Shown: positions 63,305 to 64,000, counted from the stretch's first letter. The stretch is DNA of 64,000 nt from Escherichia coli (GCF_003334335.1 NZ_QOWQ01000016.1); one strand, 5' to 3'. Numbers and translations are program-made. The notes: generated from the sequence alone by a model not told the origin.

Positions 63305-63577
63305 TCCCCGGTTTCCCTGTCTTTTCCCGGACAGCAGTCAACAGTGACGCCTGCCCGGATATCTGTTAACGAATCTGACGAATACTGCCGCCAGATTACT
63401 GAAGCAACACAGCTGCCGCGGTAAAAAGAGCCACCACCCCACCCAGCCACACAAACAACATGAAACACATTGCGCCTGTGGTGTAACGCTTTCTCCCGTA
63501 TCTCCGGTCTCTGTCTTTGTTCATCATCTGCACCTTCTGAATCATCAGAAGATGCCGCGCATCCGGCAGGACCGCCA

Positions 63578-64000
63578 TCAGGCACCAACAAGCCGTCTGA
63601 CACTCACACCATACAGCCCGTTTTTCGCCATTCCCGTATACAGAAAGGTATTCACCGTCTTCGTGTTAATACCCATCTCACTGGCAAGGCGGCAGGGTCT
63701 CGACTGGCGGTAGACATAACCGAACATCACCACCATCTCTGACATCGTCAGCGGGCGGGCAGCACTGTTATACGTCCAGACGCCGTTGTGTATGGCATCA
63801 CTTATCTGCTCACCATCACGGAGCAACTCCGCATCCAGTTGCAGAAAATGACGCCCCTGGAACATACACCGCATCAGCCTGCCCAGCAGGCCATCACTGA
63901 TTATCAGCCAGGATTCGTCAAAATCCGGGATATAACGGCGGTTCTCCGGCAGGAAAAACTCCCTCGCCAGTATCACACTGTGTTCCTTCAGTAACGCCTG
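63578..64000 (-). CDS. Partial ORF upstream of the SPATE with a weak LuxR/GerE-like C-terminal HTH (N-terminus beyond the window)
   Basis: Frame open to the window edge; C-terminal LTMSEMVVM...RLASEMGINTKTVNTFLYTGMAKNGL loosely fits the LuxR-type HTH pattern. Confidence 0.35.
   Translation of the reverse strand, partial: QALLKEHSVILAREFFLPENRRYIPDFDESWLIISDGLLGRLMRCMFQGRHFLQLDAELLRDGEQISDAIHNGVWTYNSAARPLTMSEMVVMFGYVYRQSRPCRLASEMGINTKTVNTFLYTGMAKNGLYGVSVRRLVGA

Follow-up and report, generated by a model that had tools for sequence, protein, structure and literature searches.

The 64,000-nt stretch of Escherichia coli DNA analysed here (GCF_003334335.1, NZ_QOWQ01000016.1; hereafter the window) ends, at positions 63305-64000, upstream of a gene for a serine protease autotransporter of the Enterobacteriaceae (SPATE). 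A sequence-only reading had assigned this whole segment to a minus-strand open reading frame (ORF) that runs off the window edge and lies next to the SPATE gene, immediately upstream and in the same orientation. The open frame exists and lies on the strand of the SPATE gene, with 140 sense codons between its stop and the edge. It fills only 63578-64000; the remainder of the segment is a second gene, a conserved 43-residue ORF that the reading had overlooked, and a leader of 91 nt, so that the co-orientation stands and the immediacy does not. Extension past position 64000 into 99.7%-identical DNA of complete E. coli genomes recovered the full gene. Its ATG is at window-equivalent 64048, just 48 nt (16 codons) past the edge, and the stops that might have interrupted the frame there were looked for and are absent. 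Translated, the window segment agrees without a mismatch with residues 17-156 of the complete ORF in NZ_CM129862 (locus L001), where a good Shine-Dalgarno sequence precedes the ATG, and the complete product of 156 residues is WP_021577509.1, labelled 'hypothetical protein' in RefSeq.

A tblastn search of phage records matched the gene to ORFs of the ECOR-9 P-Eib prophages, namely ORF-156C (99.4% identity), ORF-156D (98.7%), ORF-156A (97.4%) and ORF-156E (68%). The partial gene in the window is orf-156 of the prophages P-EibA and P-EibC of E. coli ECOR-9 (AF151091 and AF151674), with which it shares length and gene order; compared with those prophages, the window prophage lies at potB. GenBank has listed orf-156 as an unnamed ORF since 2000, in records that assign it no function, no published function for it was found in the literature searched, and the LuxR-type kind of protein to which we assign it below is itself familiar. 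The ORF is not a chance one, because its best homologues in a word-indexed protein search reach E 1e-98 (all of them E. coli 'hypothetical proteins'), its product matches phrog_6585 of the PHROGs database ('unknown function') over the full length, and the ratio of nonsynonymous to synonymous substitution rates (dN/dS) across diverged copies is 0.13-0.35, as under purifying selection. Among complete E. coli genomes, 13 contain the segment 63305-64000 at an identity of at least 99%, and 29 cover at least 80% of it.

In AF151091 and AF151674 the genes run in the order tail-fibre genes, orf-191, stem-loop, eibA or eibC, stem-loop, orf-156, orf-60, eaaA or eaaC, stem-loop, and the order eib, orf-156, orf-60, eaa is the same in the complete genomes with the window-type cassette. 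The eib gene encodes an immunoglobulin-binding trimeric autotransporter adhesin of the YadA type and lies 88 nt upstream of orf-156 in L001. The SPATE gene of the window is eaa; its product is 99% identical to EaaA and EaaC, matches the autotransporter barrel model TIGR01414 at 3.7e-73 and is named 'S6 family peptidase' in RefSeq. According to reviews, the expression and function of EaaA and EaaC have never been tested. At the same potB junction in NZ_AP045172 (L004), a complete lambdoid tail region is followed by the eib/orf-156/eaa cassette, and the cassette sits at the tail-fibre end of a lambdoid prophage that is integrated here at potB.

A search of the Protein Data Bank (PDB) with the single orf-156 sequence gave chance matches only, and PHROGs returned families of 'unknown function' only. 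The fold emerged from the family as a whole, which is tiny: a profile run against 1.84 billion representative proteins yielded 36 matches, many of them fragments. AlphaFold2, run on an alignment of 20 sequences, produced a model with a predicted local distance difference test score (pLDDT) of 86 and a predicted template modelling score (pTM) of 0.79. The N-terminal half of the model consists of four beta-alpha units (strands at residues 2-6, 24-27, 46-51 and 67-72). The C-terminal half is the four-helix bundle of LuxR/GerE-type domains (helices 102-112, 118-125, 129-142 and 152-155), in which helices 2 and 3 form the predicted helix-turn-helix (HTH) and helix 3, residues 129-142, is the recognition helix. 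When the model was compared with the PDB by Foldseek, the top 45 matches were all regulators of the NarL/FixJ type (best E 4e-4), RcsB first, with EvgA, DesR, LiaR, FixJ, StyR, VraR, DosR, NarL and VpsT among them. A profile of the extended family (alignment A2) searched against all PDB sequences found GerE as its best match (E 2.7e-4), followed by VraR, LuxR-family proteins, SsrB, EvgA, DosR and region 4 domains of sigma-70. By hhalign the family aligns over the HTH with TosF, a PF00196-positive protein (E 9.9e-5, 58% probability), and with NarL weakly and in the HTH only (E 0.006). Some relatives are named 'LuxR family transcriptional regulator' in UniProt. Modelling thus shows the orf-156 product as a two-domain protein, with a shortened receiver-like N-terminus and an HTH of the LuxR/GerE type at the C-terminus. 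The 'loose' match to LuxR/GerE that had been noted in the C-terminal segment is real, although only family profile and structure prediction bring it out. Three columns of the family are invariant (F109, T131 and V132), and the near-invariant ones include K130, L136, Y137 and K142-N143-G144; apart from F109, the conserved columns fall within the predicted recognition helix or just past it. The concentration of invariant columns in the recognition helix lends indirect support to a putative sequence-specific binding of DNA as a dimer.

The N-terminal domain lacks beta5 and alpha5 of the complete (beta-alpha)5 receiver fold. In the position of the acidic pair after beta1 it has T7-R8-N9, and the conserved Lys is missing. 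D52 after beta3 is near-invariant ('IISD', compare 'VISD' in CheY) and is the sole pocket residue retained, so that the phospho-acceptor pocket (acidic pair, Asp, Thr/Ser, Lys) is not formed, the equivalences being deduced from topology. The product differs from NarL/FixJ regulators such as RcsB, EvgA and NarL, and from stand-alone GerE, in a receiver shortened to four beta-alpha units and in having neither the Asp-Asp pair, nor the conserved Lys, nor a Pfam match to Response_reg or GerE. No histidine kinase gene lies near orf-156, which is surrounded by tail-fibre genes, eib, the small ORF, eaa, a YkgJ-family or DinI-like gene and the attachment site. A two-component response regulator was rejected as an identity on account of the incomplete receiver, the missing pocket and the missing kinase.

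The closest characterized relative is TosE of uropathogenic E. coli (UPEC). In BLASTP the orf-156 product aligns with TosE (WP_001024300.1) over residues 1-151 at 32% identity (E 7e-31), the family profile matches the distant, full-length family member P0050 (160 residues) at 3.4e-33, and the AFDB model of TosE from CFT073 superposes on the orf-156 model with a template modelling (TM) score of 0.91. The P0050 gene follows a large gene and precedes a GerE-positive gene. In Nissle 1917 the genes around it encode, in order, a PapB/FocB-family regulator, a TolC-family protein, an ATP-binding cassette transporter (permease/ATPase) of a type I secretion system, an HlyD-family adaptor, a large repeat protein, P0050 and a second HTH protein; because this context is that of the tosRCBDAEF operon, P0050 is TosE. 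The sequence comparison shows that the orf-156 product and TosE, from the tosRCBDAEF adhesin operon of UPEC, are homologous over their full length. The tos literature describes TosE and TosF as conserved members of the LuxR family that suppress motility. Like TosE, orf-156 lies directly 3' of a surface adhesin gene and is co-oriented with it, and the predicted fold is the same. However, the adhesin before TosE is a repeats-in-toxin (RTX) protein with type I export, encoded on a chromosomal island, whereas the one before orf-156 is a trimeric autotransporter encoded on a prophage; and the next gene after TosE is that of TosF, another LuxR protein, which Pfam recognizes, whereas orf-156 precedes a 43-residue membrane ORF. 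Reports of motility suppression concern TosE/TosF only.

Table 1. Features at the orf-156 locus; positions refer to the window unless a locus is named.
Feature	Position	Strand	Remarks
orf-156, codons 17-156 and stop	63578-64000	minus	stop codon 63578-63580; 140 sense codons to window edge
Receiver-like alpha/beta domain, residues 17-95 in window	63764-64000	minus	four beta-alpha units, predicted model
C-terminal LuxR/GerE-type four-helix HTH domain, residues ~100-156	63581-63751	minus	predicted structure and family profile
Small conserved ORF, 43 residues, MMNKDRDRRYGRKRYTTGAMCFMLFVWLGGVVALFTAAAVLLQ	63396-63527	minus	basic N-terminus and one hydrophobic helix
91-nt leader, small ORF to SPATE start	63305-63395	minus	two stable hairpins, neither with a U-run
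eaa, EaaA/EaaC-type SPATE, 1341 residues	59279-63304	minus	GDSGSP protease motif, C-terminal beta-barrel
Intrinsic-terminator-like hairpin	L001 9783-9810 (~64087-64114, outside window); L061 7784-7813; L014 7933-7968		

The genes around orf-156 were compared in 50 IMG/VR loci and four reference loci. A first group (L011-L022 and L001-L004; 92-100% identity) has an eib-like gene upstream wherever flanking sequence exists and carries the small ORF, with a SPATE gene in L001-L004 only. A second group (L023-L033; 68-71%) likewise has an eib-like gene upstream and the small ORF where flank exists, and a SPATE gene in L029 and L033, the downstream flank of the other members being too short to judge. 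The third group (L034-L045; 67-69%), which resembles Stx1a phages and phage 2B8, lacks eib, small ORF and SPATE and places the gene directly after the tail-fibre genes, and the fourth (L046-L060, like Stx2 phages) retains only fragments of orf-156 and no SPATE. Eight loci (L011, L014-L020) carry an orf-156 of 97-100% identity and the small ORF but lack a SPATE gene in the 8 kb that follow; what comes after the cassette in L014 is tail-gene remnants and lom. Approximately 8 of the 29 genomes with the window-type orf-156 lack the SPATE junction. Conversely, 52 of the 5426 complete E. coli genomes possess eaa, and because the two junction types that join it to a gene of the orf-156 family occur in 21 and 34 genomes, essentially every eaa has such a gene upstream. 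Three further loci that were inspected contain a YadA-like gene, a 157-residue gene and a SPATE gene, and two of them adjoin rcsD and not a tail-fibre end. The SPATE gene is an optional last gene of the eib/orf-156 cassette, and orf-156 does not need eaa. Stx1a-type group aside, eib is the upstream partner of all orf-156 copies of 68-100% identity that have flanking sequence.

These counts bear on the proposal, in which the earlier idea of a dedicated toxin regulator is taken up, that orf-156 is a cis-linked activator of eaa and that orf-156, the small ORF and eaa make up a self-contained virulence operon. The constant presence of an orf-156-family gene upstream of eaa, checked directly at nine loci, speaks for it, as do the terminator that splits eib from orf-156 where none splits orf-156 from eaa, and the annotated stem-loops of AF151091, which bracket orf-156 to eaaA as a unit. 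Other autotransporter genes also have neighbouring regulators: VatX stands by the SPATE gene vat, and the LuxR-type HyxR/AutR with HyxA/AutA by UpaB/HyxB, the same concept of a small HTH regulator beside an autotransporter gene on horizontally acquired DNA, although VatX, encoded downstream of vat, is MarR/PapX-like and belongs to another family than orf-156. The eight SPATE-less loci, the Stx1a-type phage group and the window-type genomes that lack the junction all tell against it; moreover, orf-156 is under purifying selection regardless of eaa, in the second cassette type eaa has an AT-rich leader of its own with promoter-like sites, and TosE is tied to motility and not to a neighbouring protease. 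Among the rival explanations, a dedicated eaa activator as the primary role of orf-156 is the one against which the distribution argues most clearly, and we regard this role as unlikely. Thus the linkage of the pair is conserved when viewed from eaa and not when viewed from orf-156, many copies of which have no SPATE gene to serve.

Transcription signals were judged from consensus scans and RNA folding. A strong hairpin with a U-run, conserved in three diverged cassettes, separates the stop of eib from the start of orf-156, and the consensus scan found no promoter-like site in the ~45 nt between this hairpin and the orf-156 ATG. From orf-156 to the SPATE gene of the window type the scan found neither a sigma-70 consensus promoter nor a canonical terminator, although a promoter could still exist. 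The leader before eaa folds at -33.5 kcal/mol (z -2.9), and both cassette types conserve its final ~45 nt (alignment A3); a search of 63000-64000 against Rfam gave no credible family. In the second cassette type, whose orf-157 is ~68% and whose SPATE is ~95% identical to the window type, the stretch before eaa (L061 6906-7100, compared with window 63305-63395) contains ~85 nt of additional AT-rich sequence that bears two promoter-like sites and is missing from the window type. The two types of cassette may, on these sequence features, express the SPATE differently.

We consider it likely that orf-156 encodes a TosE-type regulator that belongs to the eib cassette, with eaa as an optional member, is made by read-through and acts in trans on surface programmes of the host. 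The product would be a DNA-binding transcription factor that works independently of phosphorylation. It would be made at a low level, through read-through of the eib terminator or through Q-antiterminated late phage transcription, and would in this way report that the adhesin gene is on. By analogy with TosE/TosF, its most likely targets would be host surface programmes, for example motility. In the window-type cassette, where eaa lacks a promoter-like leader, eaa would be co-transcribed with orf-156 and may also be regulated by it.

Several observations weigh against this reading. The complete orf-156 protein has no match in Pfam-A, even at E<=10, and none in NCBIfam; of 20 members scanned singly against GerE, one matches at E<=1e-3 and three at E<=0.1; and hhalign of the family against CheY found nothing, which leaves the receiver assignment without sequence support. 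The LuxR/GerE-type fold is thus assigned from a predicted, not a solved, structure together with the profile matches. The HMMER comparison with GerE/LuxR_C and other HTH models of Pfam that had been proposed as a check comes out negative, and taken by itself it would have wrongly dismissed a hunch of a LuxR protein that was correct. Neither a TosF-like gene nor a TosR gene was found at the orf-156 locus, so that the partner of TosE has no counterpart here, and the literature on TosE/TosF describes the mechanism by which they suppress motility as unknown. The linkage to an adhesin is not absolute, ~12 homologues from Stx1a-type phages having no eib upstream, and the read-through model is drawn from consensus scans.

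If orf-156 and eib share a transcript, orf-156 might instead be a feedback regulator of eib that tunes Eib levels, much as TosR is for tosA. Here one can point to eib as the constant upstream partner of the 68-100% identical copies with flank, to its co-orientation and its separation from orf-156 by nothing but a terminator that could be leaky, and to the literature, in which Eib expression is conditionally regulated and poorly understood. Control of the tos adhesin belongs to TosR and not to TosE/TosF. The homologues in Stx1a-type phages have no eib to regulate, and a comparison of the regions upstream of eib, orf-156 and eaa revealed no convincing shared operator-like repeat. In addition, activation of eib in ECOR-9 is said to depend on the unlinked ibrAB genes, and eib is reportedly poorly expressed in K-12 lysogens that carry orf-156. 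Feedback on eib is, in our judgement, decidedly improbable.

Outside the window, ~300 nt upstream of the eib start at L001 11396-11435, two 13-nt arms flank a 14-nt spacer in an inverted repeat (ATCAAATTGTGCT ... AGCACAATCTGAT). It could be an operator.

The small ORF between orf-156 and eaa corresponds to orf-60 of GenBank (60 codons, 63396-63578; orf-60A and orf-60C in AF151091 and AF151674), whose ATG overlaps the orf-156 stop (TGATG). phrog_9340, a profile of 43 residues, matches residues 18-60 of orf-60 at E 3.8e-25. In diverged loci only the last 41-43 codons of orf-60 are conserved, around the core RKRYT(T/A)GAMCFMLFVWLGGVV; the frame of the small ORF relative to the orf-156 stop varies among loci, and only the internal Met, which has a Shine-Dalgarno-like sequence of its own, is conserved. 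The true start is probably at 63527, giving 43 residues, and the GenBank start would then be too far upstream; the product is probably a membrane protein with a single pass. The ORF occupies 9095-9274 in L001 and 7101-7223 in L061, is present in L061-L063, is absent from TosE-type loci, and has escaped annotation by the Prokaryotic Genome Annotation Pipeline (PGAP) in the RefSeq genomes examined.

The tight coupling of this conserved membrane ORF to orf-156 enters into a third explanation, according to which the orf-156 product would not bind DNA sequence-specifically at all and would be a protein-contact module, working with RcsB or with the 43-residue protein, or else a functionless relic. 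An HTH too divergent for Pfam, a receiver-like domain that keeps a conserved face (T7, N9 and D52) without a phosphorylation pocket, and the rank of RcsB as top structural match would all fit; auxiliary partners of RcsB such as RcsA, GadE, MatA and BglJ offer a model, and Stx2 phages carry only internally deleted remnants of the gene. Nevertheless, conservation is strongest in the recognition helix and the turn before it, as expected of a surface that reads DNA, and the dN/dS of 0.13-0.35 excludes a relic for intact copies. The auxiliary partners of RcsB, for their part, still bind DNA as heterodimers, which makes that version a refinement more than a rival. We hold this to be the least probable of the explanations discussed.

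A bolder reading is that orf-156 and the 43-residue membrane ORF form a two-piece signalling module of temperate phages, independent of phosphorylation, that switches the behaviour of the host. The small membrane protein would sense the state of the envelope or surface and control the receiver-like domain of its LuxR-type partner, the T7/N9/D52 face would be the site of contact or of a ligand, and the partner would switch motility off and adhesin and protease on. We think this very doubtful; if true, it would mean that lysogenic conversion can confer a behavioural switch, beyond the delivery of a toxin gene.

Beyond TosE, other relatives have comparable surroundings. The gene for P0046 (46% identical) stands between a gene for a trimeric adhesin like YadA, upstream, and type I secretion genes, downstream, and those for P0048 and P0052 follow genes for RTX (HemolysinCabind) proteins. 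With the exception of the Stx1a-type phage group, this small enterobacterial family lies directly 3' of, and on the same strand as, a gene for a surface or secreted protein of the YadA or RTX type. When complete E. coli genomes were searched by megablast with the P0048 locus, essentially nothing matched. At that locus (L007 9548-11418, also in L006; not E. coli), a PAPS-reductase/DUF3440 gene and a ParB/Noc-like gene lie ~6 kb downstream. These genes resemble ibrA and ibrB, which we take to be activators of eib in ECOR-9. Identity of the orf-156 family with HyxR (264 residues) or HyxA (253 residues) was rejected, hhalign giving E 0.041 (HTH only) and 0.3, respectively. The Psr regulators of prophages in enterohaemorrhagic E. 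coli, which are AraC-like, were considered as well and dropped.

Phage records extend the range of the gene, 161 of the 174 that match orf-156 doing so only at 60-80% identity. The Stx1a-type variant (for example L035 8001-8543) has 180 residues, with a C-terminal extension, and lies directly after the tail-fibre genes; in L035 a gene for a type III effector of the WxxxE family is found ~2.5 kb downstream. Stx2 and related phages (for example PA28, vB_EcoS_P27 and ArgO145) and loci L046-L060 contain an internally deleted remnant that comprises residues ~25-77 and 119-156 and is annotated as one or two hypothetical proteins, phrog_2014 being the first piece. In L062 and L063 the cassette eib, orf-157, small ORF, eaa adjoins rcsD, beside a gene for a giant protein with LPD38/LPD5 domains, so the cassette is not confined to the lambdoid tail-fibre end; the eib of L063 is truncated by an insertion sequence of the ISAba1 family.

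Towards its end the window carries E. coli chromosomal DNA with pepT, potA and potB, then an ORF of the YkgJ family (58467-58826, plus strand) and the minus-strand SPATE gene. This ORF, of 119 residues with a cysteine cluster, stands between potB and the convergent SPATE gene, a layout found also in three complete genomes. At this junction (57496-58826) potB adjoins the prophage end, and potC was not seen after potB in the window. In NZ_AP045172, upstream of roxA/pepT, a separate integrase-bearing island lies next to roxA (L004 1-7600) and carries PerC-family regulator genes, a ProQ/FinO-family gene and a primase gene.

What is new in these observations is that orf-156 belongs to the TosE branch of atypical LuxR proteins, that adhesin genes recurrently stand with a TosE-like gene, that the SPATE gene is optional and that RefSeq omits a conserved small ORF. 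They should be of use in annotation and in the design of experiments on the regulation of Eib and Eaa; they do not overturn current understanding and would not surprise a specialist. A prophage gene between eib and eaa that has been 'hypothetical' for 25 years gains a testable identity as a TosE-type LuxR regulator. Pairs made up of an adhesin gene and a gene for a small, atypical LuxR protein appear to recur across type V (Eib/YadA-like) and type I (TosA/RTX) surface proteins, and the orf-156 cassettes suggest that such pairs can be carried by phages.
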